The translations under genes and the position numbers were made by a program. A model generated the notes under the pieces. That model searched no databases and was not told the DNA's origin. It saw only the letters and a program-made list of their open reading frames with translations. A DNA stretch of 64,000 nt from a bacterium (GTDB taxonomy: Bacteria; Verrucomicrobiota; Kiritimatiellia; CAIKKV01; CAITUY01), in the NCBI GenBank assembly GCA_037132275.1, contig JBAXPK010000007.1, forward strand, positions 518 to 64,517, written 5' to 3'. Every line of letters begins with the position of its first letter. The stretch's first letter is position 1. Positions 2,056 to 44,968 of this stretch are shown piece by piece.

Positions 2056-3438
2056 TTGAAATTTATGAGCCAGACAAACAACAACGAAACAGAAGAGAAA
2101 CGGTTCTCCAAATGGCATACTGCCAGTGCGTGCCTCGGCTTGTGTTTCTTTTGCCTGGTATGGGGGGGGATATCCGTCCAGCATGGGTTTTTCCCTGGGT
2201 ATTTGCTTCGCAACGCCTATGAGGGGGCCAAAGCGGCAAGGGCTAGCTTGCACTATTGGCACATGCGATATAGCGACGACCTCTGGTCGACAAACCGGTT
2301 TTCGCGTAGTGGTGTCACGATTCATGACCCGGCCAGGACGTTTGAGGGCTACACCTTGTATACGTCCGGACACAGTCAGGCAGCGGTGCTGATGGATATG
2401 GGCGGGAAGGTTGTCCATGAATGGAAACTGCCCTATGACCAAATATGGGATTCGTCCGGCGAGGTGAAATATCCCCGCCCTCCCCACCAGGTCTTCTGGT
2501 TCAAGGCGAAGGTCTTTCCGAATGGCGATCTTATGGCCGTTGTGGAAGGAAATGGGGGCACACCCTGGGGCCAGGGAATCATCAAGATAGACCGCGATTC
2601 CCGCCTCATCTGGAAGTACCTGGGCTGTGCGCATCACGACTTCAGCATCGGCGACGACGGACGCGTCTACGGGTTGACGCATGCCATCCGTGAGGAACCC
2701 CTAACTAACCTGCCGCTGAGCTATCCCTGCCTGGAAGATTTTGTCGTGGTGCTGTCGCCGGACGGCAAAAAGGAGCAGCAGGTCTCGATGTTCGAAGCCC
2801 TCGCCAATTCGCGTTACAGGCGGGCTCTGGAAGCGGCGCCGAAAACCCCCTACGGGGAATATCTCCATTGCAACGCGGTTCGCGTGGTTGACAAACAGAT
2901 CGTGCGGAATTTCCCCTTTGCGCATGAGGGGCAGGTATTTGTTTCGATCCGTGAATTCAGCGCCGTGGTGCTTGTTGATCTCAGTAAGCGTTCGGTCGTG
3001 AACGCGCTGATTGGTTCATGGAGGTATCAGCATGATCCGGACTTTCTGGATAACGGCCACGTCATGCTCTTCGATAACTATGGCAACATGGAGGATGGGG
3101 GGATTTCGCGTGTCATCGAGTTTGATCCCCTGACCGGCGGCGTGGTGTGGTCTTACCATGGTACGGATGCCAACCCCCTGAGCAGCGAGAAGCGGTCGAA
3201 CGCCCAGCGGCTGCCCAATGGGAACACGCTCATCACGGAATCGGATTCAGGAAGACTCCTCGAAGTGACGACCCAAGGTGACGTGGTCTGGGAATTCATC
3301 AATCCCGTCAGGGGTGGAAAGAAAGGGGAGCTCATCCCGGTCATCAGCACCGGCGAGCGCATCGCGCCGGAAAGCCTCGATCCGTCGTTCCGCGACACTC
3401 TTGCTTCAAAACAAACTCAAACGAAAGGCTCACCGTGA
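2056..3438 (+). CDS. Arylsulfotransferase (ASST)-like beta-propeller protein with an N-terminal transmembrane anchor
   Basis: The ORF opens at TTG 2056; the first ATG is at 2065 (MSQTNNN...). An N-terminal hydrophobic segment is present (ACLGLCFFCLVWGGISV). Repeated propeller-like blocks with HHDF, NGHVMLFDNYGN and NGNTLITESDSGRLLEVTTQGDVVWEF are reminiscent of the Arylsulfotran_2/ASST families. It is the first gene of a sulfation operon. Confidence 0.45.
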   Translation: MKFMSQTNNNETEEKRFSKWHTASACLGLCFFCLVWGGISVQHGFFPGYLLRNAYEGAKAARASLHYWHMRYSDDLWSTNRFSRSGVTIHDPARTFEGYTLYTSGHSQAAVLMDMGGKVVHEWKLPYDQIWDSSGEVKYPRPPHQVFWFKAKVFPNGDLMAVVEGNGGTPWGQGIIKIDRDSRLIWKYLGCAHHDFSIGDDGRVYGLTHAIREEPLTNLPLSYPCLEDFVVVLSPDGKKEQQVSMFEALANSRYRRALEAAPKTPYGEYLHCNAVRVVDKQIVRNFPFAHEGQVFVSIREFSAVVLVDLSKRSVVNALIGSWRYQHDPDFLDNGHVMLFDNYGNMEDGGISRVIEFDPLTGGVVWSYHGTDANPLSSEKRSNAQRLPNGNTLITESDSGRLLEVTTQGDVVWEFINPVRGGKKGELIPVISTGERIAPESLDPSFRDTLASKQTQTKGSP

Positions 3439-3446: not shown

Positions 3447-3695
3447 ATGACCGTATTTTTGTTAGCCATTGTAAGTCTCTTTGGCATTGTGCCTTCGGCC
3501 ATGGCTTATGTCGGACCCGGTGCGGGACTGACGCTGGTCGGATCGTTTATCGGGCTTTGCCTCACCCTGTTGGTGGCTTTGTGGGCTGTCCTTTCGTGGC
3601 CGATTCGCAGACTGCTTAAGCGCAGGGGACGGGGCGCTTCAGGTGGAGAAAAGGCTCCTGAGATGGATCACACACATGACAGCCCCTCTTCTTGA
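3447..3695 (+). CDS. Small hydrophobic membrane protein (2 predicted transmembrane segments)
   Basis: ATG at 3447 lies 9 nt after the ASST-like stop. The sequence MTVFLLAIVSLFGIVPSAMAYVGPGAGLTLVGSFIGLCLTLLVALWAVLSW is strongly hydrophobic with a basic tail. No homolog recognised. Confidence 0.35.
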   Translation: MTVFLLAIVSLFGIVPSAMAYVGPGAGLTLVGSFIGLCLTLLVALWAVLSWPIRRLLKRRGRGASGGEKAPEMDHTHDSPSS

Positions 3696-4131
3696 CCTGA
3701 TTGACACGCGTTTGCTGGGATTCCTGCCTGACTTGGCTAAAATCGCGGTGTGGGCCGTGCTGTGCAGCATCATCTCCATGGCACTCTACCGGTGGCTTTC
3801 CCCGCAGAAGCGGCTGGCGGCGGCCAAAGATGACGCCAACCGGACGCGCCTGACGCTTTCCCGCTACGATGGTCCAGGGGACGGGTTGCCCCCGCTCATC
3901 AGGGCATCGTTACTCGCGGCACTCCGGCATATGGGTTTGTGTTTGGGGCCCGCTCTTGTGTCTTCAATTCCCGTGATCGCCATATTCCTATGGATGAACG
4001 CCGTCTACGGCACACCGGCGCGGGACACCCTGTCATTCGGCCCGTCCTGGTTCAGGGCATGGTATGTGCCGTTCAGTGTCGTCATGCTGGCGGCATCACT
4101 GACGATCAAGAAGGTGTGGCGCATTGTGTAG
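3676..4131 (+). CDS. Hypothetical membrane protein
   Basis: Internal ATG (MTAPLLDL...) of ORF 3643..4131 was chosen to minimise overlap. Hydrophobic segments AKIAVWAVLCSIISMALY, SIPVIAIFLWMNAVY and FSVVMLAASLTI are present. No homolog recognised. Confidence 0.35.
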   Translation: MTAPLLDLIDTRLLGFLPDLAKIAVWAVLCSIISMALYRWLSPQKRLAAAKDDANRTRLTLSRYDGPGDGLPPLIRASLLAALRHMGLCLGPALVSSIPVIAIFLWMNAVYGTPARDTLSFGPSWFRAWYVPFSVVMLAASLTIKKVWRIV

Positions 4132-4155: not shown

Positions 4156-5280
4156 ATGGACAAAACAACACAAGAGAGTTCGGACTTTCAGGTTGACTGG
4201 TTGACAAACCGATTGAGCCAATGGGTCTGGAAGTCGCCGGGGCGTGCTGTTCGGCTGGGGAACCATGAGAGCCGGTGGTTTGCCGATGAATTACAGTCCT
4301 GCCCGGTTCAGAAGCCGGTGTTCATTGCGGGGTTGGCAAGGTCGGGAACCACGATCCTGCTGGAGTTCATGGCGATGCTAGACGGGGTGGCCACCCATCG
4401 ATACCGTGATTTCCCGCTGGTGCATATGCCTATCTGGTGGAACGAGTTCCTGAACCTCACTCCCCGGAAACGCATGGAGCCCGTCGAAAGGAGCCATCGC
4501 GACGGCATTGTGATCACGCCCGAAAGCCCGGAGGCGATGGAAGAGCCCCTCTGGATGAGTTTCTTTCCGCTGGCCCACGACTCGGCGGTCAGCCAGGTGC
4601 TGAATGCGGCCACGGTGAACCCGGGATTTGAAGCGTTTTTCCAAGACCACTTGCGCAAGATCCTGTTCGTGCGCCAGGGTCGCCGCTATGTGTCGAAGGG
4701 CAATTACAACGTCACGCGGCTCGAGTATCTCCTGCGTCTGTTTCCGGACGCACGGTTTGTGGTGCCGGTGCGGGAACCTGCGGGGCACGTGGCTTCACTC
4801 ATCAAGCAGCACCGCATCTTCGGCGAAAATCTTCGAGGCAATCCGCGTGCGCTTGAGTATCTGCGCCGCGTTGGGCACTTCGAATTCGGGCCGGACAGGC
4901 GGGCGATCAATGTGGGGGACACGGTCCTGGCCCGGGAGATTGAAGCGTTGTGGGCCGCCGGCGAAGAGGTGCGTGGTTGGGCCCGATACTGGGCCTCCAT
5001 CCATGGTTTCCTTGCGGGGCGCATGGAATCGGATCCGCTCTTTCGGAAGGCTGTACGACTGGTTCGGTTTGAGGAACTGTGCGAGCGGCCGGCCGCTGAA
5101 CTCAGGAAGATCGCGGAGCATGGTGAGTTTACAGATGCCGCGCGAGGCGCGGACTCTTTCGCGGAACGAATTCGGTTCCCTCGGTACTACGCGCCTTCGT
5201 TCAGTGAAGCCGACGGGATGGCCATTAAGGACGAAACGGCGTCCGTGTTCATGCGACTCATGCGTCTCCAACAACAATGA
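4156..5280 (+). CDS. PAPS-dependent sulfotransferase
   Basis: Carries the 5'-PSB-type P-loop of sulfotransferases (FIAGLARSGTTILLEFM). Size (374 aa) and downstream helical regions fit the sulfotransferase fold. It sits directly upstream of pstS-like and the PAPS-synthesis genes. Confidence 0.6.
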   Translation: MDKTTQESSDFQVDWLTNRLSQWVWKSPGRAVRLGNHESRWFADELQSCPVQKPVFIAGLARSGTTILLEFMAMLDGVATHRYRDFPLVHMPIWWNEFLNLTPRKRMEPVERSHRDGIVITPESPEAMEEPLWMSFFPLAHDSAVSQVLNAATVNPGFEAFFQDHLRKILFVRQGRRYVSKGNYNVTRLEYLLRLFPDARFVVPVREPAGHVASLIKQHRIFGENLRGNPRALEYLRRVGHFEFGPDRRAINVGDTVLAREIEALWAAGEEVRGWARYWASIHGFLAGRMESDPLFRKAVRLVRFEELCERPAAELRKIAEHGEFTDAARGADSFAERIRFPRYYAPSFSEADGMAIKDETASVFMRLMRLQQQ

Positions 5281-5293: not shown

Positions 5294-6244
5294 ATGAAGA
5301 ACAGGCAGTTTTATAATGGGATGTCGGTATTACTTGCCGTGGTTTCGCTTCTGGGCGCAGGCTGCGGTAAGCGGCAGACTGCGCCGGAGGCCCGGATCAC
5401 GGTTTCGGGTGCCTGGGCGCTTTACCCGATGATGGTGAAATGGGCGGAAGAATATAGGAAGTCACATCCCGGGATTCAGATCGATATTTCTGCAGGCGGA
5501 GCCGGAAAAGGGATGACGGATGCCTTATCAGGCGCCGCCGATATCGGCATGGTTTCACGGGATATCAATCCCTCCGAAGCGGGTAAGGGGGCATGGTGGG
5601 TGGCGGTGGTCAAGGATGCCGTGATTCCCGTCATGAATGCCTCAAACCCGAACGGCGGCATCCTCGCCAAACGGGGTCTCAAGAAAGAGGAATTTACCGC
5701 CATCTTTGTGAAGGGAAATGTTCAGGATTGGAGTTTTGCGGGCGGCACACCAACTCCGCTTCATGTTTATACTCGATCAGACGCCTGCGGCGCAGCGGAA
5801 ACCTGGGCCAAGTATCTTGGCGCCAAGCAGGAAGACTTGAAGGGAACCGCCGTTTACGGGGATCCCGGCGTGGCCGAAGCCGTGCGCAAAGACGTGTCAG
5901 GCATCGGGTTCAATAATCTGATTTTCGCCTATGACATCAAGAGCGGTCAACCCCTTCCGGGTATATGCGTCATCCCCATCGACAGCAATGGGAACGGCGC
6001 CGTGGATCCCGGGGAGGATTTCTATGGGACCCACAAGGCGGTCATGCAGGCAATTGCTACGGGGCGTTATCCCTCCCCGCCAGCCCGTGATCTGAATCTG
6101 GTGCATCATGGGCCCCCCCCGTCCGGACCTGTTGCCGATTTTATCAAGTGGGTGCTTGCGGAGGGGCAAGCGTTTGTATCCGAAGCCGGCTATATCGCCC
6201 TGCCCGCTGAAATCCTCAACAGCCAGAAGGCAAAGCTGAAATAG
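5294..6244 (+). CDS. pstS: PstS-family periplasmic oxyanion-binding lipoprotein (phosphate-binding protein homolog)
   Basis: Signal peptide plus lipobox (LLAVVSLLGAGCGK). Alignable to E. coli PstS: SGAWALYPMMVKWAEEY against TGAGATFPAPVYAKWADTY, and SAGGAGKGMTDALSGAADIGMVSRD against [22 protein letters not shown]. Contains a C8 tract at 6113-6120. Confidence 0.65.
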   Translation: MKNRQFYNGMSVLLAVVSLLGAGCGKRQTAPEARITVSGAWALYPMMVKWAEEYRKSHPGIQIDISAGGAGKGMTDALSGAADIGMVSRDINPSEAGKGAWWVAVVKDAVIPVMNASNPNGGILAKRGLKKEEFTAIFVKGNVQDWSFAGGTPTPLHVYTRSDACGAAETWAKYLGAKQEDLKGTAVYGDPGVAEAVRKDVSGIGFNNLIFAYDIKSGQPLPGICVIPIDSNGNGAVDPGEDFYGTHKAVMQAIATGRYPSPPARDLNLVHHGPPPSGPVADFIKWVLAEGQAFVSEAGYIALPAEILNSQKAKLK

Positions 6245-6247
6245 GCC

Positions 6248-7150
6248 ATGGATCGTGATTCCATACGACAGGGACTGGATTGCTGGGGCCGCCGAGGCAT
6301 GGTTGCGACGGTGGCGATGTGCATTTTACTCCTACTGCTTATGGCGATGGGCCTGCTGTGGAAATCCTGGCCCATTCTTAGCTCACATTCACTGGCAGGC
6401 CTGTTTCTTTCCAGCGTCTGGAAACCCCATGGAGGGCAGTTCGGATTTCTGGCCTTCATTCTGGGTTCCTTATGCATTACCGGAGTAGCGGTGCTGCTGG
6501 CCGCGCCGGTTTCGTTGTTAACGTCCATCTATCTGTCCGAATATGCCGGACGCCGGATCCGGGCGTTGATGTCGCCCCTGATCGATCTCCTGGCGGGCAT
6601 TCCCTCGGTGGTTTACGGGGTGTGGGGAGTGCTGGTGGTCGTTCCCCTGGTGAAAGATCATCTAGCGCCGGTATTCGGCCGATATTCATCCGGGTATTGC
6701 GTTCTTTCCGCCGGGGTGGTGCTGGCCATCATGATTTTGCCTGTCGTCATTCATGTGGGCCTGGATGTGTTGAAGTCCGTTCCCCAGGGGTTGCGCGAGG
6801 CCTCCCTGTCACTGGGCGCGAATCGGTGGGAAACGGTGAAGCATGTAGTATTGCGGCGTGCGGCGCCGGGCCTGTTGGCCGCCAATGTTTTAGGCGTGTC
6901 GCGGGCCTTTGGCGAGACGATGGCCGTTCTCATGGTGGCGGGGAACGTCGCCGTGACTCCGAAATCCGCATTCGATCCCGCCTACCCGCTACCCGCGCTC
7001 ATTGCCAACAACTACGGCGAGATGATGTCGATCCCGCAGTATGACTCCGCCCTGATGCTGGCGGCGCTCATGCTTTTCGTGGTGGTACTGGGTTTCAATT
7101 TATTGTCGCGCTGGGTTTTTGCCCGTATGGAGTTGCGCATTTCAGGATGA
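6248..7150 (+). CDS. pstC: Pst-type ABC transporter permease (PstC-like)
   Basis: Six-TM permease with the EAA-like loop (...LREASLSLGANRWETVKHVVLRRAAPGL...), positioned between pstS and pstA homologs. Confidence 0.65.
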   Translation: MDRDSIRQGLDCWGRRGMVATVAMCILLLLLMAMGLLWKSWPILSSHSLAGLFLSSVWKPHGGQFGFLAFILGSLCITGVAVLLAAPVSLLTSIYLSEYAGRRIRALMSPLIDLLAGIPSVVYGVWGVLVVVPLVKDHLAPVFGRYSSGYCVLSAGVVLAIMILPVVIHVGLDVLKSVPQGLREASLSLGANRWETVKHVVLRRAAPGLLAANVLGVSRAFGETMAVLMVAGNVAVTPKSAFDPAYPLPALIANNYGEMMSIPQYDSALMLAALMLFVVVLGFNLLSRWVFARMELRISG

Positions 7151-7154
7151 ACCC

Positions 7155-8003
7155 ATGAGAAAGCAGATTGAAGAAATTGCCGCCAAAATCCTGATGATCG
7201 GAGCCGCCGTGGTGGTGGCCGGGATGGTCGTTTTGATTCTCGGAACCGTGTTATGGCGCGGCCTCCCGGCGTTGAGTTGGGAAATGATCTCGCAGACTCC
7301 GTCCGGCGGTTACTATCTCGGAAAGGGCGGCGGCATTCTCAATGCCATCGTCGGGTCACTTTCGGTGGCCGGTGGCGCAACCCTGCTGTCGCTCGGCCTG
7401 GCTTTGCCAGTGGCGTTGAGCCTGAATGTCTATTTCAAGACCCATTCCCGACTGGCGGGTTGCGTCAGGGGCTCGTTGGATGTGCTGTGGGGTGTGCCCT
7501 CCATTGTCTATGGCGCCTTCGGGTTTGCGTTTATGCTTTGGCTCGGACTCCGCGCTTCCCTCCTGGGGGGGATTATCACCGTGGCTTTGATGATCCTCCC
7601 CATCATGATCCGGGCCATGGATGAAGTGATTCACATGGTTCCGCACGAGATGCTGGAAGCCTCCGATGCCCTGGGTGCCACCCGGTGGGAGGGCGCCTGG
7701 AAGGTAATCCTCCGGCAGGCGCTTCCCGGACTTGCCAGCGCGGCGCTGATCGCCTTCGGGCGGGGGATCGGGGATGCCGCCTCTGTTCTTTTCACGGCGG
7801 GATTTTCGGACCGGATTCCGATGTCACTTGCGGATCCTGCTGCGACCCTGCCGCTGGCCATATTCTTCCAGTTGGGTACCCCGTTCCCGGAGGTTCAGCA
7901 ACGGGGCTATGCTGCGGCGCTGATATTAACGGCCATCGTGCTGACGGCCAGCGCTCTGGCGCGTCTGGTCAGCCATCGGGCGGGACGGTTTGTAATTCGA
8001 TGA
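7155..8003 (+). CDS. pstA: Pst-type ABC transporter permease (PstA-like)
   Basis: ATG at 7155 lies 4 nt after the pstC stop; the longer 7119 start would overlap. TM-rich sequence with the EAA motif (EASDALGATRWEGAWKVILRQALPGL). Confidence 0.65.
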   Translation: MRKQIEEIAAKILMIGAAVVVAGMVVLILGTVLWRGLPALSWEMISQTPSGGYYLGKGGGILNAIVGSLSVAGGATLLSLGLALPVALSLNVYFKTHSRLAGCVRGSLDVLWGVPSIVYGAFGFAFMLWLGLRASLLGGIITVALMILPIMIRAMDEVIHMVPHEMLEASDALGATRWEGAWKVILRQALPGLASAALIAFGRGIGDAASVLFTAGFSDRIPMSLADPAATLPLAIFFQLGTPFPEVQQRGYAAALILTAIVLTASALARLVSHRAGRFVIR

Positions 8004-8013
8004 AGGACATACC

Positions 8014-8775
8014 ATGACAGCCAATACCCCTATTGAAGTGAAAGACCTGAATGTGCATTACGGCACGATCCATGCTTTGAAAAATATCCACGTTAGTATC
8101 CCCAATTGCCAGATCACGGCAGTCATCGGCCCCTCGGGGTGCGGTAAGTCTACCTTGTTGCGTTCGTTCAACCGCATGCTCGACACCATGGATGATGTGC
8201 GGGTCACAGGCGGGGTGCTGGTCGACGGTGAGAATATTTTTGCGGCCAATGCGGATGTGCCGCGTCTACGCCGCAAGATGGGACTGCTTTCTCAGCGGCC
8301 GTTTCTCCTGCCTATGTCGATCTATGACAATGTGGCCTACGGGCCGCGCATCCATGGGATCAGCCGCCATTCCGACCTGGATTGCACCGTGGAAAAATAC
8401 CTCCGGATGGCCAACATGTGGGATGAGGTCAAGGATCGTCTTCGCGAGCCCGCTGCAAAGCTGTCGATCGGTCAACAGCAACGGCTCTGCCTGGCGCGGG
8501 GCCTCGCTGTGGAACCCGAGATTATCCTGGCGGACGAGCCCACCTCGGCGCTGGACCCGATTTCAAGCCGTCACATTGAACAACAATTCCGAGAGTTACG
8601 GGCTGACTACACGCTGGTGATGGTGACCCATATTCTTCGGCAGGCCCGTCGCCTGGCCGACTATGTGCTTTTCATGTATCTGGGTGAACTCATCGAGCAC
8701 GGGCCGGCGGCCGAACTGTTTGAGAATCCCCGCGAGGAATTGACGAAGGATTATATCAAGGGAACGATCAGTTAG
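8014..8775 (+). CDS. pstB: Pst-type ABC transporter ATP-binding protein (PstB-like)
   Basis: Near full-length colinearity with E. coli PstB: Walker A AVIGPSGCGKSTLLR, PMSIYDNVAYG, LSIGQQQRLCLARGLA, ILADEPTSALDPIS and LFMYLGELIEHG. Length of 253 aa matches PstB rather than CysA. Confidence 0.8.
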   Translation: MTANTPIEVKDLNVHYGTIHALKNIHVSIPNCQITAVIGPSGCGKSTLLRSFNRMLDTMDDVRVTGGVLVDGENIFAANADVPRLRRKMGLLSQRPFLLPMSIYDNVAYGPRIHGISRHSDLDCTVEKYLRMANMWDEVKDRLREPAAKLSIGQQQRLCLARGLAVEPEIILADEPTSALDPISSRHIEQQFRELRADYTLVMVTHILRQARRLADYVLFMYLGELIEHGPAAELFENPREELTKDYIKGTIS

Positions 8776-8786
8776 GAGGCCAGGCC

Positions 8787-9308
8787 ATGGTGAGTAGTAA
8801 GATTCAACCTGCAGTCGTGTGGTTCACCGGATTATCAGGGTCCGGCAAGAGTACCCTTGCTGAGAAGGTGGAGCACGCCCTGAAGATGCGTGGCGTGGAC
8901 ACCGAGATTCTGGATGGCGACCGGGTTCGCGCGGTCTTTCCGAGCATCGGGTTCTCCCTTGAGGAGCGCAACGCGCATATCCGCCGCATGGGCTTCATGG
9001 CGGGTCTCCTTGAGAAACACGGTGTGGTGGTGCTGGCGAGTTTCGTGTCGCCTTATGCAGAGGCCCGCCAGGCGGCGCGGTGGCAATGCCGCAATTTTAT
9101 TGAGGTCTATCTTTCCACCCCCCTCGCCGAATGCGAGCGGCGCGATGTGAAAGGTCTCTACGGCAAGGCGCGCCGGGGCGAGATCTCCAACTTCACCGGA
9201 GTCAGTGATCCGTATGAAGTTCCGGAGAATCCGGATCTGGTTATCGACACCACCGCCATGAGTGTGGAGGAATCTGTTGCCCTGGTTCTGGGGAGATTGC
9301 AGTCATGA
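8787..9308 (+). CDS. cysC: Adenylylsulfate (APS) kinase
   Basis: [16 protein letters not shown] Walker A and an LDGDRVR loop. A 173-aa standalone kinase domain. Confidence 0.8.
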
Positions 9309-10210
9309 CAATCCATTCCCTGACCCATTTGAAGCAACTGGAAGCCGAGAGCATTCATATCATGCGCGAGGTGGCCGCAGAATTCGAGCGGCCGGTCATG
9401 CTTTACTCGGTCGGGAAAGACTCATCGGTCATGGTGCGGCTGGCCCAGAAGGCCTTTTACCCCGGACGGATTCCCTTTCCACTGATGCATGTGGATACAG
9501 GTTTCAAATTCGGGGAGATGATTGAGTTCCGTGACCGGTTTGTGAAGGAGATCAAGGCGGATCTTATTGTGCATCAGCATGAAAAATCAGCCGACCTGTC
9601 GGTGAATCCCTTTGCCCTCGGAACCCAGAAGTGCTGTGCGATACTTAAGACGCAGGCTCTGGTGGAAGCCATACGCAAACATAAGTTTGACGCCGCTTTC
9701 GGGGGCGCCCGCCGCGAGGAGGAGAAATCGCGGGCCAAGGAGCGGGTGTTCTCCTTTCGGGACGAGCTCGGGCAGTGGGATCCCAAAAACCAGCGTCCGG
9801 AACTGTGGAGCCTCTATAATACCCGGGTCAACACAGGCGAATCCATCCGAGTATTCCCCATCTCCAACTGGACCGAGTTGGATGTCTGGCAATATATCTA
9901 CATGGAAAAGATTCCGGTGGTGCCCATGTACTTTGCGCAGGAGCGCGACATGATTGTGAGGGATGAGCAGTTGATTCCGTTCCAGGAAACCACGCCGCTC
10001 AAACCGGGCGAACACCCCTGCAAAGTGCTGAGTCGATTCCGCACCCTGGGCTGTTATCCCTGTACCGGGGCCATCCGGTCATCGGCGTCAACGGTGGCGG
10101 AAATCATCGAGGAAATGATGGTCGTACGCATCTCCGAACGTTCGACCCGCGTGATTGATCATGACGCCGAGGGCTCGATGGAAATGAAGAAACGGGAAGG
10201 GTATTTCTAG
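9305..10210 (+). CDS. cysD: Sulfate adenylyltransferase subunit 2 (CysD/NodP)
   Basis: Near-identical block structure to E. coli CysD: [38 protein letters not shown] (PP-loop SxGKDS), [22 protein letters not shown] and [15 protein letters not shown] overlap with cysC. Confidence 0.9.
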
Positions 10211-10211: not shown

Positions 10212-12143
10212 ATGAATGCGATTGAGGCATTTCTGGCGGAGAATGAGAAGAAGGATCTGCTTCGGTTTTCGACGGCGGGCAGCATTGACGACGGCAAGTC
10301 AACCCTGATCGGCCGTTTACTGCACGACTCAAAGAATGTCTACGAGGATACGCTGGCGTCGATCAAAAAGGCGTCTCGTGAAAAAATGTCGGAGGAACAG
10401 ATCGACCTTGCCTTGCTCACTGACGGTCTTAAGGCAGAACGCGAGCAGGGGATCACCATTGACGTCGCCTACCGCTATTTTTCGACACCGCGCCGGAAAT
10501 TCATCATCGCCGACACGCCCGGACACGAGCAATACACCCGGAATATGGCGACCGGCGCCTCGACCGCCAATCTTTCGGTTGTGCTGGTGGATGCGCGTCA
10601 TGGCATCCTTCCCCAGACGCGGCGCCATGCGTTTATCGCCTCCCTGCTGGGGGTGCCGCACATGATTGTGGCCGTGAACAAAATGGATGCCGTGGACTAT
10701 CGGGAAGACGTCTTTCAGGCGATTCGCGACGAGTTCGCTGAGTTTGCCTCGAAGCTGGGCATCAAGGATCTGCGTTTCATTCCGCTGAGTGCCCTCAAGG
10801 GCGATAACGTCGTCCATCGCAGTGGAAACATGACCTGGTACCGGGGCGAAAGCCTGATGGAAATCCTGGAGAACGTCTACATCGGCAGCGACCATAATCT
10901 CGTGGATCTGCGGTTCCCCATCCAATATGTGGTGCGCCCGGATATGGGCTTCCGCGGCTATGCCGGAGTTGTCACCTCCGGTGTCATCCGTCGGGGGGAT
11001 GAGGTGTTGGCGCTCCCTTCGATGAAAGTCAGCCGGGTCAAATCGATTGTCACCTTTGATGGCGACGTGGAAGAGGCCTGTTCGCCCATGTCGGTAACGG
11101 TCACCCTGGAAGACGAGCGTGATATCAGCCGCGGGGAAATGCTGGTCCGTCCGCATAACCTTCCCAAAATGGACCGGCGTTTTGAAGGCATGGTGGTGTG
11201 GATGGGGGATGCCCCAATGGATCTGAATGCCAGCTATTTCATCAAGCACACCACCCGCCTGACCCGGTGCCGGGTGGACGAAATCCGTTACAAGGTGAAT
11301 GTGAACACCCTGGCCAGAGAGGCCATGACGGGACTCGCCTTGAATGACATTGGCCGGGTTGTCTTCACCGCCAATCAACCCCTGTTCAGTGATTCCTACG
11401 AGAAGAACCGGGGAACCGGCTCATTTATCCTGATTGACCCCGTGACCAACGCCACTGCGGCAGCCGGGATGATCATTGATCGCGAACCAGCGGAACAGCT
11501 TGTTTCCCGCATCACCCCCGGGGTAGGGGCGCACACGATGAGCCGGCATGGCCGCCAGATCGAGGCCGGGGAGCGGGTGGCGCGTTATGGGCAGAAGCCG
11601 GCGACCCTGTGGCTGACCGGTCTGGTGGGATCGGGAAAATCAAGTCTGGCTGGCGCGCTAGAGCGGAAGCTTTTCGACTTGGGCGCCGTCAGCGTTGTCC
11701 TCGATGGTTCGAATGTGCGGTCGGGCCTCAACCGTGAACTGGATTTCACGTCCGAGGGGATGGCCGAACATCTCCGCCGCGTCGCTGAGATGGCTCGGCT
11801 CCTGAACGATGCCGGGTTGGTGGTTATATGCGCCTTTGTTTCCCCTCATGAAAAGGTGCGCCGGCAGGTGGCTGAAATTATTGGAATCGACCGGTTTCTG
11901 GAAGTTCACGTGGATGCGCCCCTTGAGTGGTGCCAGGCTCACGACCACACTGGGTTCTATCAGCGGGCCGAGGTAGGCGAGGTGCGCAACGTGGCGGGCA
12001 TCAGTTTTCCTTATGAAGCGCCGACCACGCCCTCGCTCAGGGTGTCGACGCCGGATATGACGCCTGAAGGTGCTGTATCAATCGTCATGAACCTGCTGCG
12101 TAAACAAGGGATATTCCCGGTCGGTGCTCTCTCAAATGAGTGA
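10212..12143 (+). CDS. cysN: Bifunctional sulfate adenylyltransferase subunit 1 (GTPase) / APS kinase, NodQ-like
   Basis: N-terminal EF-Tu-like GTPase ([27 protein letters not shown]). C-terminal APS kinase ([33 protein letters not shown]). 643 aa. Confidence 0.85.
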
Positions 12144-19843: not shown

Positions 19844-20542
19844 ATGGCTGTTGCTCAGAAACATATACTGATTGTTGAAGACGAGGATGATATCCTTGAG
19901 TTGGAGCGCTACAATCTGACGCGGGAGGGCTTCAGCGTGGCCGCAGTTTCGCGCGGCGAGGATACCCTCAAGGCGGTGACCCAGAAGAGGCCGGATCTCA
20001 TTCTCCTGGATCTCATGCTGCCGGGTATGAACGGGCTTGAAGTGTGCCAGAAACTCAAAGCAGATCCCTCAACCGCCGACATCCCGATCATCATGGTCAC
20101 AGCCAAAGGCGAGGAATCGGACATCATTGTGGGGCTGGAACTCGGGGCGGACGATTATGTGAACAAGCCCTTCAGCATCAAAGTGCTCATTTCCCGCATC
20201 CGTGTTGCGCTGCGCCGTCAGCCGATCAAAGCTTATGACCAGAAGCATGGCCTGCGGGTCGGTGACGTGGAGATCAATCCCAGCCGTTTTCAGGTGAAGA
20301 TCAAGGGAAAACCCATTGTGGGGCTCACGGTGACAGAGTTCCACCTGCTTCACTTTCTTGCCAGCCGTTCAGGCCGTGTCATGAACCGGCAACAGATCCT
20401 GGATGCTGTGCGCGGTGAGGATATTGCCGTGACTGAGCGGGCGGTGGATGTCCAGATGGTCGGCTTACGCAAGAAGCTCGGCTCCGCCGCAGATTACATT
20501 GAGGCCGTGCGTGGAGTGGGATACCGCTTCAGGGACGGCTGA
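19844..20542 (+). CDS. OmpR/PhoB-family response regulator (orphan, no adjacent kinase)
   Basis: REC domain (ILIVEDEDDI...LILLDLMLPGMNG...IIMVTAKGEE). C-terminal winged helix (...GLTVTEFHLLHFLASRSGRVMNRQQILDAV...VGYRFRD). Confidence 0.85.
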   Translation: MAVAQKHILIVEDEDDILELERYNLTREGFSVAAVSRGEDTLKAVTQKRPDLILLDLMLPGMNGLEVCQKLKADPSTADIPIIMVTAKGEESDIIVGLELGADDYVNKPFSIKVLISRIRVALRRQPIKAYDQKHGLRVGDVEINPSRFQVKIKGKPIVGLTVTEFHLLHFLASRSGRVMNRQQILDAVRGEDIAVTERAVDVQMVGLRKKLGSAADYIEAVRGVGYRFRDG

Positions 20543-23170: not shown

Positions 23171-24400
23171 ATGACAAACAGATTTTGGGCACAAACCAAC
23201 ATCTTCACAACACTGGCGATCACAAGCGGCCTTATGCTGGCATTAGCCGGAGGATGCAAGCCGTCTGAGCCGTCTCTTCCAACTTCAAGAAACGCAGGAC
23301 AGGCCGGACCCCTCGGATATGGCTGGGTTTTCGCGTGTGCGATCACCAATGATGAGATAGACCTGAGTGACCGCTGTCTGGCCCAGAAAGCGGTGGCTCT
23401 TGCCTATCTAGCCGAAGGTAATGTCGAAATGGCCCAGGCGTGTGCGTTGCAGATCGAGGATTACAGCCGGGGAATGGTACTCGCCGCCATCGCGGAGTGG
23501 CTTGTCGCGCATAACGAGTCTGAGAAGGCCGAGGCATTGCTTCCGGCGCTGGAAGCCAGTGGATTTGTGGCGAAGGATTGGCAGCGTGAGTACATTGGTT
23601 CGGCCATCATACGGGTTCAAGCCCTATTGGGTAAGGAGCAAGTAGTGGTCAAGAACGCCGCAAAATTCAGCGACCACTCCCGTCTTGGGGGTGATGTCGC
23701 GGCGAGTCTGGCACTCGTGCTGGCGCGAACTGGCCGCGTGGATGAAGCCACGGGCATTCTCGGAAATCTGACGCAGACGAACGGGCTTAATACCGCAGAT
23801 TCAAGCGTGAAAGGGTACTTGGATATGGCCGCGTTGGGGCGACTTGACCGGGGTGCGGTGACGCAGGCGCTCGTCAAGGCCTGGGAAGCGGCGGGAACCA
23901 TCCGGCCGCCCCGGCGGTGGGATCTGCAGTTAGAGGTGATTGATGCCATGACCAAACAGGGGATGTCCAAGGACGCCCTCGAACATCTTGCCCTGACATC
24001 CTCCAACATCACGATCGCCGTTAAACTTCCCCCGGAGGTTCACTCCGCGATGCTCTGCCAGTGCGCGCTGTTATGGAAAAAACTGGGGCAACCACAGAAC
24101 GGTGAGGCTCTGCGCGGCGAGGCAGAAAAAGCCATTGCTCGAAAAATGGAAGTGATCTTCCAGCCCGGTGCCTACGCGATCATCGCAACGATGTACGCCG
24201 AAGCCGGCGATCTAGCACAGGCCAGAACGTGGTATGGCCGCGCCCTGGACGTGGCCGCCGGTCTTGAGAACCGCCGACCCAGGGCCCAGGCTGGCGTGGA
24301 AGTGTGTGAGTCGTTGGCAAGACATAAAGAGGTTATTGATGCGGGCATCCAAAAGAGGCTTGAACGCCTCAACGGGACATTTGATGTCGCGCAACCCTAA
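23171..24400 (+). CDS. Helical-repeat (TPR-like) lipoprotein
   Basis: Signal plus lipobox (LMLALAGGCKP). Alpha-helical Ala/Leu-rich repeats. The 3' end overlaps the downstream receptor start by 17 nt. Confidence 0.45.
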   Translation: MTNRFWAQTNIFTTLAITSGLMLALAGGCKPSEPSLPTSRNAGQAGPLGYGWVFACAITNDEIDLSDRCLAQKAVALAYLAEGNVEMAQACALQIEDYSRGMVLAAIAEWLVAHNESEKAEALLPALEASGFVAKDWQREYIGSAIIRVQALLGKEQVVVKNAAKFSDHSRLGGDVAASLALVLARTGRVDEATGILGNLTQTNGLNTADSSVKGYLDMAALGRLDRGAVTQALVKAWEAAGTIRPPRRWDLQLEVIDAMTKQGMSKDALEHLALTSSNITIAVKLPPEVHSAMLCQCALLWKKLGQPQNGEALRGEAEKAIARKMEVIFQPGAYAIIATMYAEAGDLAQARTWYGRALDVAAGLENRRPRAQAGVEVCESLARHKEVIDAGIQKRLERLNGTFDVAQP

Positions 24401-27400
24401 AGGGTGGTTGTTGGCGGTTGTTTTGATTACGGGACTCGCATGGGCACTGCCAACCTGCGGGCAGATTCCTTTTGGGGGGATTCGCGGTTCGGTTTCAGAT
24501 GCGGAGTTCGGAGGCCCGGCGGCACAGGCCACGATCCAGGTGGTGGAACTGAACAAGGGGCAGGTCACATCGGAGGACGGGCATTTCATTGTCGAGGGAT
24601 TGCCGCCGGGAAACTACACCATAACGGTCTCAAAGCCGGGTTACGAGCGGCATGTCCAATCGGCTGTAATCGTGGTAGCCGGGGCGTTGACGGATTTGGC
24701 GATTGAGTTGAAGGGTGAATTCACCGAGATGGAGGAATTGACGGTGCGCGACTTGGAATTGACGGATACCGCGAGCGAAACCGGCCTGCTGAACCTGCGC
24801 CGCAATACGCTGTCGTTCCAAGATTCCGTCAGCAAGGACATGATGCGGCGCGCCGGGGCAAGTGATGCGGCCGGGGCGCTGAAACTGGTCGTTGGTGCCT
24901 CGGTGGTGGACGGCAAGTACGCCACCGTTCGAGGCATGAGTGACCGGTATGTCGGGGTTGCGCTGAATGGCATGCGTGTACCCAGTTCCGATCCCAAGAA
25001 GCGCGCCGTACAATTGGATATCTTTCCTTCCGGAACGATCGAGAGCATGACCGTGTCCAAGACCTTCACCGCGGATCTGCCGGGTGATTACAGCGGCGGC
25101 GGTGTCAATATCCGGACGATTTCGATTCCTGAAAAGCCGTTTATGAAAGCATCCCTATCTCGTGAGGTCAATGGGCAGTTTACCGGGAAAGATGGCTTCG
25201 TCACCTACGACGGGTCGGGGTGCAGCCAGTGGGGTCGCGATCAGGGGTCGCGGGCCATGCCGACGGATTTGGCGAACATGACTCGGAATCCGATTCTTAC
25301 CAGTAGCATTATCGCGGGTGGTTCACTGCCGTCGAGCTTCTCGTTACACAATCAGTTGGTGGACGCCGATCATCCGCAAGACCCCGTCTATGCGGAGTAT
25401 GACCGCATTACCCGTTCCCTCTCCCCTGCCATGGGTGTCAAGTTTACCAAGGTGCCCGACGGGAACTATGGGTATTCGCTGAGTGGAGGCAGTCGCAAGG
25501 ATGTGGGAGGCGGCTGGACGGCGGGGGGGATTGGCGCGTTCACCTACAGCGACAAGTTTACGGTGCAGGATGCGGCCGAGCAGTCCTACTCGCGGGCCGA
25601 GTTCGGAGGTGTGAATCTCGCGGACAACAACCAGTTCCGCCGCCAGACCGGGAGTCAGGAAGTCAAGGACAGCATGCTGGCGTCGGTGGGATTGGCCCAA
25701 GGGGATGAGCAGGCGTTTGGATTCACATGGCTCAGGACTCAGGCCGCCACAGACCGTGCCTCCATCAGAAATGACATGACGTTTCCCAATACGATGCCTG
25801 TGGATGCTCAGGTGGATCGGGTTCAGGGCATCCAGTACACCGAGCGATCCACGGATTCCAAGCAGTATACCTGGCATCGGAAGTTTGATCCGGTGGAGGT
25901 TGAGTTGTTCGGGGCGCACAATGTCGTTCGACAGTACGATCCGGATACGCGGCGTTTCAAAGAACAAGTTTCGCGGTCGGGGCCGGAGGAGTGGAATTTT
26001 ATCATTCCCCAACCCTCCAGCGTGATGTCCGTCTACAATGCTGCGCGTATCTGGCGTGATATCGAAGAGGATAACACCCAAGAGGGAATCAACCTTAACC
26101 TCCCCTTCAAGGCAAACGATTCCGATGGCCGATTCAAACTCGGCGCACTCAAAGACATGACCCAGCGGTCGTTTACTCAGTCGGCTTTCACCTATCTCGG
26201 GGTGTCGCGGTTCCGCCAGAAGCCCCCCGCTGACAGTTCCGATGCTGATGCGCAGAAGTGGTACACCAATGATGTCAAGAGTGCCGATTTCAAGACGACC
26301 TCGTCGGATCCCTCCGCGTTGTGGACGGATACTTTTACGGCTGACAATAATATCGGCGCCGGGCCCTATCAGAACGAAATGCGGTGGTATATCATTCCGC
26401 AGATCGGGCAGAATAACGTAAACTATCAAGCCAGTCAGGATCTTCCCTCAGGGTATTGGATGCTGGATTATCCGTTAACGTCGCGACTCAAGGCCCTTGC
26501 CGGCGCCCGGCTTGAAGTTACCGACATTTCGATCGATCCGATTTCGGCTTATGAAGCCATCCAGCCGGGAAGTTATTCCTACTCGGTGTTGACCCTGGAG
26601 TCGGGCGCGTATTCCTTCAAGCCCGCCACGCGGGCTGACGTCCAGACCCATATGCAGGAGGCGGACTGGTTGCGCTCGATGGGTCTGGTGTACGAACTCG
26701 CCCCGAAAATGAACCTTCGGGTCAACTGGTCGCAGACCATTGCTCGTCCCACCATTCGGGAGTTGGCCCCGGTGCTGTCGGTGGATCCCATCGAAAACGA
26801 GAATTTTGTCGGTAATCCGAACCTGAAGGTTTCGCATGTGGAAAACGATGACGTGCGATGGGAGTGGTTTCGGAAGCCGGGCGAGGTGTGGGCGGTCAGC
26901 TGGTTTTACAAGAAGATCACCGATCCTATTGAAAAGATCTCCTTTAACTATTACGGTGACCCGTATGTCGTGGCGGTCAACTATCCTGAGGGCCAGGTTT
27001 CCGGAATGGAATACGAGGCCCGAAAAGACCTCGATTTCCTGCCTGGGCCTTTCGGATACCTGCATGTGGGCGCCAACTATACCCGCATGAAATCACTAGT
27101 GGTGTTGCCCGATGAATATGCGAACCGGTTGAAGAACTACGATCTTTATCCCGAGGAGCGGGATCCTTCCGACGAGTATGTGTCGCCCTTTGACCAGTTT
27201 GCGAAGGGCTTTGTCTTCAGTTTCTTTAATATGGAAGATGTTGGGAAATCGAAGGGGGCTACGCGTGACATGGAGGGGCAGCCGGATTTTCTATTCAACT
27301 TCAACTTGGGATATGACATTGAGAAATGGGGAACCTCCATCAACTGGTTCTATAACATTCGCGGCGATATGCTTAAGACCGGCGCGGCAGTGGCGGATTA

Positions 27401-27614
27401 CGCCATTCCCGATGTGTACACCAAGAAGCTAGCAACGGTTAACCTGGGTCTGACACAGAAGCTTACCAAGACTGTAAGTTGCACCGTCGGTGCCCAGAAC
27501 CTTCTGGATCAGGAGATCCGGGAAGTTTACCGGCTGCCGGATGGCAAGGAGATCCCCAAACGAAGCTACCGCGAAGGGATTCGCTACACCTTCAGCATTT
27601 CAGGAACCTGGTAA
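24384..27614 (+). CDS. TonB-dependent outer-membrane receptor with an N-terminal carboxypeptidase-regulatory-like domain
   Basis: ATG at 24384 gives a signal peptide MSRNPKGWLLAVVLITGLAWALPTCGQ. CarbopepD-like region (IQVVELNKGQVTSEDGHFIVEGLPPGNYTITVSKPGYERHV). Plug domain (ATVRGMSDRYVGVALNGMRVPSSDP). C-terminal aromatic residue (...SISGTW). Confidence 0.75.
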   Translation: MSRNPKGWLLAVVLITGLAWALPTCGQIPFGGIRGSVSDAEFGGPAAQATIQVVELNKGQVTSEDGHFIVEGLPPGNYTITVSKPGYERHVQSAVIVVAGALTDLAIELKGEFTEMEELTVRDLELTDTASETGLLNLRRNTLSFQDSVSKDMMRRAGASDAAGALKLVVGASVVDGKYATVRGMSDRYVGVALNGMRVPSSDPKKRAVQLDIFPSGTIESMTVSKTFTADLPGDYSGGGVNIRTISIPEKPFMKASLSREVNGQFTGKDGFVTYDGSGCSQWGRDQGSRAMPTDLANMTRNPILTSSIIAGGSLPSSFSLHNQLVDADHPQDPVYAEYDRITRSLSPAMGVKFTKVPDGNYGYSLSGGSRKDVGGGWTAGGIGAFTYSDKFTVQDAAEQSYSRAEFGGVNLADNNQFRRQTGSQEVKDSMLASVGLAQGDEQAFGFTWLRTQAATDRASIRNDMTFPNTMPVDAQVDRVQGIQYTERSTDSKQYTWHRKFDPVEVELFGAHNVVRQYDPDTRRFKEQVSRSGPEEWNFIIPQPSSVMSVYNAARIWRDIEEDNTQEGINLNLPFKANDSDGRFKLGALKDMTQRSFTQSAFTYLGVSRFRQKPPADSSDADAQKWYTNDVKSADFKTTSSDPSALWTDTFTADNNIGAGPYQNEMRWYIIPQIGQNNVNYQASQDLPSGYWMLDYPLTSRLKALAGARLEVTDISIDPISAYEAIQPGSYSYSVLTLESGAYSFKPATRADVQTHMQEADWLRSMGLVYELAPKMNLRVNWSQTIARPTIRELAPVLSVDPIENENFVGNPNLKVSHVENDDVRWEWFRKPGEVWAVSWFYKKITDPIEKISFNYYGDPYVVAVNYPEGQVSGMEYEARKDLDFLPGPFGYLHVGANYTRMKSLVVLPDEYANRLKNYDLYPEERDPSDEYVSPFDQFAKGFVFSFFNMEDVGKSKGATRDMEGQPDFLFNFNLGYDIEKWGTSINWFYNIRGDMLKTGAAVADYAIPDVYTKKLATVNLGLTQKLTKTVSCTVGAQNLLDQEIREVYRLPDGKEIPKRSYREGIRYTFSISGTW

Positions 27615-27618
27615 TTCA

Positions 27619-28545
27619 ATGAAGAAGGACGGCATCAACAAAGGACTGAAGCAGAGCTGGGCATGGGCGCTGATCTCGGCGCTTTTTGTCATGCCTGTCG
27701 CGGACGCGGCGGAGCCCGGCCCCGGGGAGTCCGGAGTTGCCCAGCCACCTGTCTCCGCCATGGTTGCGTCGGCGCCGGGCTGGTGGGGTGCAATGGCCCG
27801 GCAACCATGGGCGAAGCGATTGGCCCGCATGTGGACCGGCGAGGAGCCGGATGATGCCAGCAGTGCGGTGATGGGTGGGCGCATGGGTGCTTTCCTGGAT
27901 GTGGTTGAACAGGGCAACTTGTTTCACATTTTCCGGAAAGGAGGGCCGATCATGTGGCCCCTGTTTTGCGCCGCGCTTTTGTCCTTGGGCACCGTTTTGG
28001 AACGGGCCGGTTTTTTCACCTTGGAGCGTTTTCGCAGGAATGCCGCCGAGCAACGGAAATTCATGGCGGCGCTCAGGGATGGGAGCATCGAGCAGGCGGC
28101 CGCGATTAGTGCTGGCAGTCGCTTCTATGTAGTGCGTGTGCTCGGTTACGCAGTGTCCCATTCAGGATCCGCCTTGGAAGGGGCGATACAATATGCCAAG
28201 GAACGTGAACTGCACCGGTATCGCCGGGGCATCCCCATGCTGGATACGGTGATCACCCTGGCGCCGCTGCTCGGTTTGCTGGGCACGGTGACGGGTATGA
28301 TGGCGTCATTTTCACTGATCGGTGGCGAACTGGGCGCCCCGGGGGCGATCACGGGCGGGATTGCCGAGGCCCTGATTGCCACCGCGTTCGGACTGGGTAT
28401 TGCGATTACCAGCTTGATTCCCTTCAATTTGATGAATCAGAAACTGGAGACCGCAACCCAGGAGATTGATGAAGCCGCCAGTGCGATGATGATCCTGCTC
28501 GCGGGGCGGATGGGGTTCCCTCATGGGCAAGGAGGCGTCGCATGA
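27619..28545 (+). CDS. exbB: MotA/TolQ/ExbB proton-channel protein (ExbB paralog 1)
   Basis: GPIMWPLFCAALLSLGTVLER...LDTVITLAPLLGLLGTVTGMMASFSLIG...GGIAEALIATAFGLGIAI. Signal-like N-terminal periplasmic extension. Confidence 0.75.
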   Translation: MKKDGINKGLKQSWAWALISALFVMPVADAAEPGPGESGVAQPPVSAMVASAPGWWGAMARQPWAKRLARMWTGEEPDDASSAVMGGRMGAFLDVVEQGNLFHIFRKGGPIMWPLFCAALLSLGTVLERAGFFTLERFRRNAAEQRKFMAALRDGSIEQAAAISAGSRFYVVRVLGYAVSHSGSALEGAIQYAKERELHRYRRGIPMLDTVITLAPLLGLLGTVTGMMASFSLIGGELGAPGAITGGIAEALIATAFGLGIAITSLIPFNLMNQKLETATQEIDEAASAMMILLAGRMGFPHGQGGVA

Positions 28546-29246
28546 TCGGGCGCGTGTTGGGATTCATCTTCGGTATCTCGATTCTTGCAGGTGTGTTGCT
28601 GTTCGGGGGCCTGCTCATGCCCCAGGGCAAAAAGAACGCCCACATTAAAAACGTCGAACTGCTTTCAGGGGACATGCAAAAGGAAGAAAAGAAGGTGGAG
28701 CAGCCTCCGCCTGAAAAACCGCCGGAGGAACTGCAGGCTCAAAAGGATCAGCCGCCGGAGATCAGCGAGGTTACGGCCGCTCCCCAGATGTCCGATAATA
28801 CCCCGGCACTGGACGCCGCAAGCCTGAGTTCCATCATGTCGGCGCTGAATCCCGGGAGCGGAGGCGGCGAATTCGGGTCGTCCGTTAACCTAGCCTCAGG
28901 CGGCCGCATCGGGGGAACCGGTAAGGCTGGCAGCCAGGCAAGCGAGGGCCTGGACAAGGCTTTCGGTATGGACGATATCGATCAGAAGCCACGGGTCATT
29001 GTCCAGACGCCCCCAGCGTATCCGGCCGAGTTGCGGGGCAAGAAAATGGGAGGCGTTGTGCAGGTTGCCTTTGTCGTGACGACGACAGGTCAGGTCTTCA
29101 ATCCGCGTGTGGAGACTGCCTCCCATCCGGCCTTCGGGGCGCCGGCTCTAGCTGCCGTGCGACAGTGGAGGTTCGAGCCCGCCGTCAGGGGCGGGACCAG
29201 AGTGAAATGCCGGATGCGGGTTCCGATCAAATTTCAGGCGGGGTAG
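28542..29246 (+). CDS. tonB: Energy transducer TonB
   Basis: N-terminal TM, Pro/Glu/Lys-rich spacer (EQPPPEKPPEELQAQKDQPPE), and a C-terminal TonB domain (PPAYPAELRGKKMGGVVQVAFVVTTTGQVFNPRVETAS...AVRQWRFEPA). Confidence 0.8.
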   Translation: MIGRVLGFIFGISILAGVLLFGGLLMPQGKKNAHIKNVELLSGDMQKEEKKVEQPPPEKPPEELQAQKDQPPEISEVTAAPQMSDNTPALDAASLSSIMSALNPGSGGGEFGSSVNLASGGRIGGTGKAGSQASEGLDKAFGMDDIDQKPRVIVQTPPAYPAELRGKKMGGVVQVAFVVTTTGQVFNPRVETASHPAFGAPALAAVRQWRFEPAVRGGTRVKCRMRVPIKFQAG

Positions 29247-29249
29247 TTC

Positions 29250-34949: not shown

Positions 34950-35121
34950 GCTGATTCAGAAGTAACACCCTGCTAATTGTTTTCAAATCCAGCATTCGTT
35001 TACTCTGTCCGCAGTGAGTCATGGAGCGCGGATCAGGGATGATGCGCGTGGCGTAATGGGTTGTGATGAGGCGTCCGGCGTTGCGTTGCGGGCGCGTGGA
35101 AATTATGGAGGATTGAACGAA

Positions 35122-36300: not shown

Positions 36301-36309
36301 GAGAATCTC

Positions 36310-38373: not shown

Positions 38374-38387
38374 GGAGCGTCGCCGGG

Positions 38388-41155: not shown

Positions 41156-41162
41156 CATTACC

Positions 41163-42395: not shown

Positions 42396-42461
42396 TCGAA
42401 TCCTGACGTTCTGCTTGTTGTCGCCTGACAGGTTGTTGGCAGGCTACAGCATGAAAAAGGT

Positions 42462-44964: not shown

Positions 44965-44968
44965 CATC

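Follow-up and report, generated by a model that had tools for sequence, protein, structure and literature searches.

The structures of the phosphate- and sulfate-binding proteins gave rise to a classical rule (Quiocho), according to which a phosphate site offers a proton acceptor and a sulfate site offers donors only. Among phosphate-binding PstS proteins, the S-type carries Ser at the position of Escherichia coli Asp56 and still binds phosphate; in Synechocystis SphX a set of Thr and Ser residues contacts the anion, and of these Thr17 and Thr148 have been proposed as the proton acceptors and are key for phosphate binding by mutagenesis (PMC13614923). The membrane anion site has been defined for the E. 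coli permease pair PstCA (PstA Arg220, PstC Arg237/Glu241; PMC12976172). A 2023 survey of solved PBP_like_2 proteins gives phosphate, arsenate and tungstate as ligands and does not list sulfate (PMC10443332), and in the literature, which we covered incompletely so that an earlier description is possible, we found no Pst-type or PBP_like_2 sulfate transporter. In Bacillus subtilis, the sulfate permease CysP belongs to the PiT family of phosphate transporters (PMC5840216). Here we describe a four-gene ATP-binding cassette (ABC) importer of Pst architecture (positions 5294-8775) in a 64-kb window, i.e., the whole stretch of DNA analysed, taken from contig JBAXPK010000007.1 of a Kiritimatiellia bacterium (GCA_037132275.1). 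Judging from its sequence, the physiological substrate of this importer is probably sulfate and not phosphate. We consider sulfate the most likely substrate because the genes lie in a sulfate-activation operon, because the binding protein has lost its hydroxyl ligands, and because sulfur genes recur beside its relatives whereas PhoU accompanies none of them in the 80 loci surveyed.

The four co-directional open reading frames (ORFs) follow the order S-C-A-B (binding protein, PstC-like, PstA-like, PstB-like). The first-pass annotation had placed them between a sulfotransferase gene and cysC/cysD/cysNC, and both the coordinates and the families are confirmed, with flanking gaps of 13 and 11 nucleotides (nt). 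The genes of the operon, with the best-matching models and their bit scores, are:

2056-3438, + strand: ASST-type arylsulfotransferase-like protein, the first gene of the conserved operon (Pfam Arylsulfotran_2, 72 bits)
3643-4131, + strand: small hydrophobic ORF, no Pfam or NCBIfam match; small ORFs stand at the same place in two related loci (L085 and L086)
4156-5280, + strand: sulfotransferase of the type dependent on 3'-phosphoadenosine 5'-phosphosulfate (PAPS) (Sulfotransfer_3, PF13469, 58 bits), stopping 13 nt before the ATG of the binding-protein gene
5294-6244, + strand: lipoprotein substrate-binding protein of 316 amino acids (aa) with a PstS-like fold (PBP_like_2, 114 bits)
6248-7150, + strand: PstC-like permease (TIGR02138, 274 bits, past the cutoff of 196)
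7155-8003, + strand: PstA-like permease (TIGR00974, 184 bits, just under the cutoff of 193)
8014-8775, + strand: PstB-like ABC ATPase (TIGR00972, 331 bits, just under the cutoff of 343), with the Pfam ABC_tran domain intact
8787-9308, + strand: adenosine 5'-phosphosulfate (APS) kinase CysC (PF01583, 188 bits; TIGR00455, 199 bits, over the cutoff), starting 11 nt after the PstB-like gene
9305-10210, + strand: sulfate adenylyltransferase small subunit CysD (NF009214, 477 bits, over the cutoff)
10212-12143, + strand: CysN fused to a second APS kinase domain, CysNC (NF004035, 884 bits, over the cutoff)

We infer from the gaps of 4-13 nt and the overlaps between genes that they are co-transcribed. 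The nine-gene operon is conserved whole in a relative with an 85% identical binding protein, where the ASST-like gene holds the same position. For the PstA-like gene we use the ATG at 7155; a TTG at 7119 would lengthen the ORF, but the relatives are 282 aa long. The earlier statement that the operon contains no classical sulfate transporter (CysPTWA, SulP, CysZ) holds, and by Pfam no SulP, CysZ, PiT, DASS, TauE or CysPTWA-type protein is encoded by the operon genes or by the main non-overlapping ORFs (200 aa or longer) elsewhere in the window. The 64-kb window contains no second pst operon.

The divergence from Pst lies in the binding protein. While the permeases and the ATPase come near or over their own cutoffs, the binding protein is more than 110 bits short of both PstS models (TIGR02136, 93.9 bits against a cutoff of 206.6; TIGR00975, 65 bits against 205). 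These PstS models were the only ones that it matched, the sulfate-binding type SBP_bac_11 not being among its hits, and the permeases score only 38-51 bits with the CysT and generic sulfate-permease models and 20-35 bits with CysW (cutoffs 240-415). Aligned to E. coli PstC (9k3s_B), the PstC-like protein keeps the equivalents of Arg237 and Glu241 (SRAFGETMAV), and the PstA-like protein, aligned to E. coli PstA (9k3x_A), keeps that of Arg220 and has Asp for Glu224 (GRGIGDAASV). An AlphaFold (AF2) model of the binding protein, built on a 25-sequence alignment, reached a predicted local distance difference test (pLDDT) score of 87.5 and a predicted template modelling (pTM) score of 0.81; its best fold matches in the PDB are all phosphate-binding PstS proteins, and residues 41, 72 and 167 sit at helix N-termini.

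The anion site was mapped by profile-to-PDB alignments with D-type (8ods, 35yt) and S-type (4gd5, 4q8r) PstS proteins, testing the E. coli ligands T10, F11, S38, D56, R135, S139, G140 and T141 (ligand lists from PMC13614923). Together with Asp137, they correspond to the following residues of the binding protein:

E. coli Thr10: Trp41
E. coli Phe11: Ala42
E. coli Ser38: Ala70
E. coli Asp56: Ser88
E. coli Arg135: Arg161 (kept)
E. coli Asp137: Asp163 (kept)
E. coli Ser139: Cys165
E. coli Gly140: Gly166 (kept)
E. coli Thr141: Ala167

Thus, among the eight E. coli phosphate ligands only the Arg and Gly identities are kept, and Ser88 is the sole remaining hydroxyl. The first-pass annotation had asked whether the segment GMVSRDIN (residues 85-92) retains Asp56, the residue it held responsible for excluding sulfate, or has Arg in its place. 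Neither is the case: Ser88, invariant in the family, aligns with the Asp of D-type PstS and with the Ser of 4gd5, which rules out Arg89 as the equivalent, and Asp90 is ruled out as well, being placed elsewhere by the same alignments and variable among relatives (D/E/A/G/S/N). Asp56 has indeed been replaced, but its loss by itself is not diagnostic, because genuine phosphate-binding S-type PstS proteins carry Ser there.

The decisive feature of the aligned sequences is, in our view, the loss of the remaining Thr and Ser ligands. Full conservation of the canonical phosphate ligands had been named as part of what would speak against sulfate import; instead, besides the exchange of Asp56 for Ser, four further hydroxyl positions have become W/F, A, C and A. 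The positions of SphX Thr17 and Thr148 correspond to W/F41 and A167, both near-invariant in the family. A site with no obvious side-chain proton acceptor save Ser88, the hydroxyl of which could act either way, as donor or as acceptor, would under the classical rule match a sulfate site and not a phosphate site. Position 41 is W or F, both of which occur beside sulfur genes; most members from Bacteroidota have Phe, also where cysH and sulfite reductase genes are the neighbours. Cys165 is interchangeable with Ala or Ser, again also in loci beside sulfur genes. Since these residues can be exchanged, the site must rely on backbone amides, Ser88 and Arg161.

The replacements are a property of the whole family. 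Homologues of the binding protein form more than 7,900 clusters at 90% identity (E < 1e-5); the best 120 are 53-90% identical to it, apart from one that is identical, and 118 of these 120 have the motif GA[W/F]A[L/M]YP. Near-invariance extends to GGAGKG, [M]xSR and RSDACGAA (best 120 homologues and the 25-sequence alignment). The family is tight, as only 175 among 1.8 billion 50%-identity representatives fall under 1e-30. In distant relatives an EF-hand-like loop of the form D-x-N-x-N-G-x-x-D-x-x-E is common and the ligand positions differ. In the binding protein itself, this loop is D230-S-N-G-N-G-A-V-D-P-G-E241 (5981-6016, + strand), with D230, G235 and E241 invariant and N232, N234 and D238 at least 90% conserved; it is kept across a wider PBP_like_2 clade and absent from the aligned solved PstS proteins, suggesting a Ca2+ site with a structural or regulatory role. 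In a rough neighbour-joining tree, the hydroxyl-free sequences fall into one block that adjoins a hydroxyl-rich trio. The same EF-hand clade contains a third site class (P0169, at 8001-8984 of locus L093, P0202 and P0206) with the motifs GAYALxP / xGTGxG / RSDxSGAA; in its sole informative locus the binding-protein gene stands as an orphan, with no permease genes and with heterodisulfide-reductase-like genes next to it.

Genomic neighbourhoods supply a further line of evidence. When one genome per species was scanned with a sequence pattern, at least 573 relatives came up; 80 loci from about a dozen bacterial and archaeal phyla were kept, their flanking ORFs being clustered and the cluster representatives annotated. 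These loci span Bacteroidota (including cultured Mucilaginibacter and Flavobacterium), Verrucomicrobiota, Kiritimatiellia, Planctomycetota, Omnitrophota, Spirochaetota, Chloroflexota, Desulfobacterota and archaea (ANME-1, ANME-2 and Methanoperedens, ANME standing for anaerobic methanotrophic archaea). CysD, CysN, CysC, CysH or a NirA-type sulfite reductase is encoded no more than 10 kb away in 15 of them, in unrelated phyla, and an Rrf2 regulator, the best specific NCBIfam match of which is the cysteine-metabolism regulator CymR (under the cutoff), occurs in 26, mostly directly upstream; a sulfur gene or an Rrf2 regulator is present in 39. PhoU was found in none of the 80 (Pfam tally of 99 unclassified neighbours, and phmmer), and additional neighbourhoods annotated with Pfam show the same picture. 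As a control, we looked at three relatives of the same EF-hand clade that keep the hydroxyls (STT/S/SGT): two of the three adjoin a divergently transcribed PhoU-domain regulator, and the third lies on a short contig without PhoU.

The S-C-A-B order recurs in the related loci as far as their contigs reach: PstC/PstA-like permease genes follow the binding protein in every locus with a long enough contig, and a PstB-like gene was found in 67 of the 80, the contig ending inside the operon in many of the remaining loci. In Mucilaginibacter the order is sulfite reductase, cobA, cysG-tauE, cysH and porin, then the binding protein and PstCAB; in an ANME-1 metagenome-assembled genome (MAG) the transporter genes are followed by cysD-cysN; and a Kiritimatiellae MAG repeats the sulfur-gene association at 56% identity, together with an Rrf2 regulator. 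At one Desulfobacteraceae locus, the neighbours of the operon are TusA, a YeeE-type Sulf_transp gene and a Se/S carrier. An outer-membrane channel is encoded next to the transporter in about 40 loci, belonging to Porin_O_P in 20 of them, to Alginate_exp in 15 and to DUF2490 in 5-7. In 8-11 Bacteroidota loci a HisKA_3 kinase and a GerE-type response regulator replace Rrf2, the pair standing directly upstream of the porin gene (e.g., L003, L012, L059, L074 and L077). Four Mucilaginibacter loci (L006, L007, L015 and L027, at ~6200-7750) encode, within the sulfate-reduction operon, a siroheme-synthase N-terminal domain fused to a TauE/SafE membrane domain. TauE-family proteins have been shown to take up sulfate (PMC11535334), and these operons may therefore hold two sulfate entry routes.

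The suggestion of the first-pass annotation that a Pst-family transporter was recruited for sulfate is supported by three independent lines, namely the ligand mapping, the near-invariant replacements and the sulfur and Rrf2 neighbours without PhoU, and we consider a Pst-derived importer with high affinity for sulfate a good probability. In the mechanism that we propose, the lipid-anchored binding protein would capture the anion, fully ionised, where three helix N-termini (residues 41, 70-72 and 166-167) form a cleft, the donors being backbone amides, Ser88 and Arg161, itself held by Asp163. With W/F, Ala and Cys in place of the Thr and Ser hydroxyls, no obvious proton acceptor would be left apart from Ser88. 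The loaded protein would then dock on the PstC/PstA-like heterodimer with its paired-Arg anion site, and the PstB-like dimer would power translocation with ATP. Imported sulfate would be converted by CysD/CysN to APS and by CysC and the C-terminal domain of CysN to PAPS, which could then be used by the adjacent sulfotransferase.

Several observations weigh against sulfate as the substrate. Phosphate transporters have Arg161/Asp163 and the membrane Arg pair in common with this system, 20 loci encode a porin that Pfam assigns to "phosphate-selective porin O and P", and about half of the 80 loci have no informative neighbour. In Mucilaginibacter a second sulfate importer would be redundant, because a TauE-family domain is already there. 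We also considered Trp41 as a required mimic of the Trp N-H donor of the classical sulfate-binding protein, a role that is ruled out by the Phe found at position 41. Finally, the sequence cannot separate thiosulfate, sulfite or another group-VI oxyanion from sulfate.

The last point leads to the alternative that survives best, namely that the system imports another oxyanion (thiosulfate, sulfite, selenate, molybdate or tungstate), with sulfate at most a side substrate. A site that seems to consist mostly of hydrogen-bond donors and makes few contacts through side chains would accept any tetrahedral oxyanion in its fully ionised form, and the loss of hydroxyls together with the gain of an aromatic residue makes for a more apolar pocket that could fit the sulfane sulfur of thiosulfate; the Desulfobacteraceae locus with its TusA, YeeE-type and Se/S carrier genes points the same way, as do the tungstate- and arsenate-binding members of PBP_like_2 (PMC10443332) and a weak match of the adjacent Mucilaginibacter porin to the selenite/tellurite porin ExtI. 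However, the recurrent neighbours CysD, CysN, CysC and CysH act on sulfate, APS and PAPS only and are bypassed by thiosulfate and sulfite assimilation, and no neighbour cluster in the 80 loci consists of molybdopterin, tungstoenzyme, selD or ars genes. We regard a different oxyanion as unlikely.

Still less probable is an ordinary high-affinity phosphate importer, if a divergent one, which has come to lie in sulfur-related operons by chance, the alternative already raised by the first-pass annotation and now disfavoured by the lost hydroxyls and the absence of PhoU from all 80 loci. In its favour, all homologues of known structure or function bind phosphate, and the PstC-like protein passes its equivalog cutoff, with the PstA- and PstB-like proteins about 10 bits short of theirs. 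Both the Arg135/Asp137 equivalents and the Arg pair in the membrane have been retained, the Porin_O_P neighbours in 20 loci fit, and S-type PstS proteins bind phosphate without Asp56 (PMC13614923). Yet here the positions of SphX Thr17 and Thr148 are occupied by W/F and Ala, and Ser38 and Ser139 are lost too; PhoU, missing throughout, does accompany two of the three hydroxyl-retaining relatives; and the sulfur-gene association recurs in unrelated phyla, for which chance placement is no explanation. The Pho box, which the earlier annotation had linked to phosphate control, was sought with the E. coli-type consensus, which matched the window three times, where chance alone would give 3.9 matches, and not once in the first 17 kb, which include the operon; this is a weak test, as that consensus may not apply in the host phylum. 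The PhoU-domain gene of the window itself encodes a stand-alone protein of 217 aa (53800-54453, - strand) between a GT4 glycosyltransferase and a ThuA-like gene. As 45 kb separate it from the Pst-like operon and it is encoded on the opposite strand, the organism has a PhoU-type protein unlinked to this transporter. That the binding protein is mainly a sensor or signalling partner, with transport secondary or lost, is very hard to credit, the kinase and GerE-type regulator directly upstream in ~8-11 Bacteroidota loci and the orphan binding protein of the related site class being outweighed by permease genes in every long-enough core-family locus, a PstB-like gene in 67 of 80 loci, and an intact ATPase ABC domain and membrane anion site.

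Returning to sulfate import, what the PAPS would serve in this genome can be judged from the rest of the window. It contains neither cysH nor a sulfite reductase gene but has a large exopolysaccharide cluster (35014-53637; Poly_export/SLBB, polysaccharide deacetylase, Wzy_C, GT4, GT2, Bac_transf, a MurJ-type flippase and methyltransferases), and PAPS is thus likely destined for sulfation rather than assimilation, the cluster being a plausible acceptor pathway for the PAPS-dependent sulfotransferase. The two APS kinases of the operon, CysC (8787-9308) and the CysN C-terminal domain (11595-12101), are 39% identical, and by eye the P-loops of both copies are intact.

Upstream of the operon, a strong GC-rich hairpin terminator with a T-rich tail (1903-1945) closes the preceding gene, which encodes an Ig-domain protein. 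Only ~10 nt separate a perfect TTGACA (2041-2046) from the start annotated downstream of it for the ASST-like ORF, a distance so short that either the true start codon or the promoter is uncertain, and a promoter/terminator scan of 1.8-13.4 kb gave nothing beyond the shuffled expectation. Rfam detected no riboswitch (S-adenosylmethionine or other sulfur-responsive) upstream of the operon, either in the window or in seven Bacteroidota loci. Elsewhere in the window are an OmpR-family response regulator (19844-20542, + strand; best NCBIfam match PhoB, 238 bits, cutoff 296), next to which no histidine kinase was recognised, and, at 24234-32868, a TonB-dependent receptor followed by two ExbB/MotA-like genes, TonB_C, a TPR protein and DUF3450.

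On balance, we also regard a wider proposal as somewhat more likely than not: that a previously unrecognised family of sulfate ABC importers arose from Pst by stripping the binding site of its hydroxyls and has been systematically annotated as phosphate transporter, within an EF-hand-loop clade that has diversified into several anion specificities. The hydroxyl-stripped family occurs in Bacteroidota, Kiritimatiellia, Spirochaetota, Omnitrophota, Planctomycetota, Chloroflexota, Desulfobacterota and ANME/Methanoperedens. If this is true, thousands of genes labelled "phosphate ABC transporter" or "substrate-binding domain-containing protein" are misannotated, and metabolic reconstructions of many anaerobes, soil Bacteroidota and methane-oxidising archaea credit them with too much phosphate uptake and overlook the uptake of sulfate. 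It would also fill in the sulfate-entry step for lineages such as ANME, for which the specificity of putative sulfate transporters has been stated as uncertain (PMC6286981). The signature GA[WF]ALYP / GGAGKG / RSDxxGA could serve as an annotation rule, and the family would represent a natural, sequence-readable conversion of a phosphate site into a sulfate site, by which the Quiocho rule becomes testable in one fold.

Set against known systems, the transporter would work like PstSCAB mechanically and like Sbp/CysP-CysTWA physiologically, with a binding protein that falls outside the definitions of both. With E. coli PstSCAB (TC 3.A.1.7; PDB 1IXH, 9K3S) it shares the four components, the S-C-A-B order, the binding-protein fold and the equivalents of Arg135/Asp137, PstC Arg237/Glu241 and PstA Arg220; it differs in the exchanges Asp56 to Ser, Thr10 to Trp/Phe, Ser38 to Ala, Ser139 to Cys and Thr141 to Ala, in the lack of phoU in the operon, in the sulfate-activation genes around it and in the extra EF-hand-like loop. 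The S-type PstS proteins (Synechocystis SphX, 9L8J; Clostridium perfringens PBP-1, 4Q8R/4GD5) are its best sequence and fold matches and likewise have Ser for Asp56 within a conserved S-R motif, and the Asp-Arg of their proposed triad is apparently kept (D108 by eye, R265 from the 4jwo alignment). In contrast to them, the phosphate-contacting SphX set Ser15, Ser16, Thr17, Thr45, Ser146 and Thr148 is represented here by Ala, Trp/Phe, Ala, Ala, Cys and Ala, and the protein is ~60 residues longer, with D-type-like features (GAxxxYP, R-S-D). Sbp/CysP-CysTWA (TC 3.A.1.6) would have the same substrate and the same pathway role, feeding CysDN, and the coupling to cysDN, cysC and cysH is common to both (here in the window and in 15 of the 80 loci), as would be an anion site in which backbone amides at helix N-termini prevail and side-chain ligands are few. 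The binding-protein families are different, SBP_bac_11 there and PBP_like_2 here, and an Arg would contact the anion here, whereas the classical sulfate-binding protein of Pflugrath and Quiocho reportedly uses no charged ligand. A precedent in kind is B. subtilis CysP, a secondary carrier without binding protein or ATPase and unrelated in sequence, but equally a member of a phosphate family that was recruited to sulfate, lost phosphate-critical residues and is located in a cys operon (PMC5840216).

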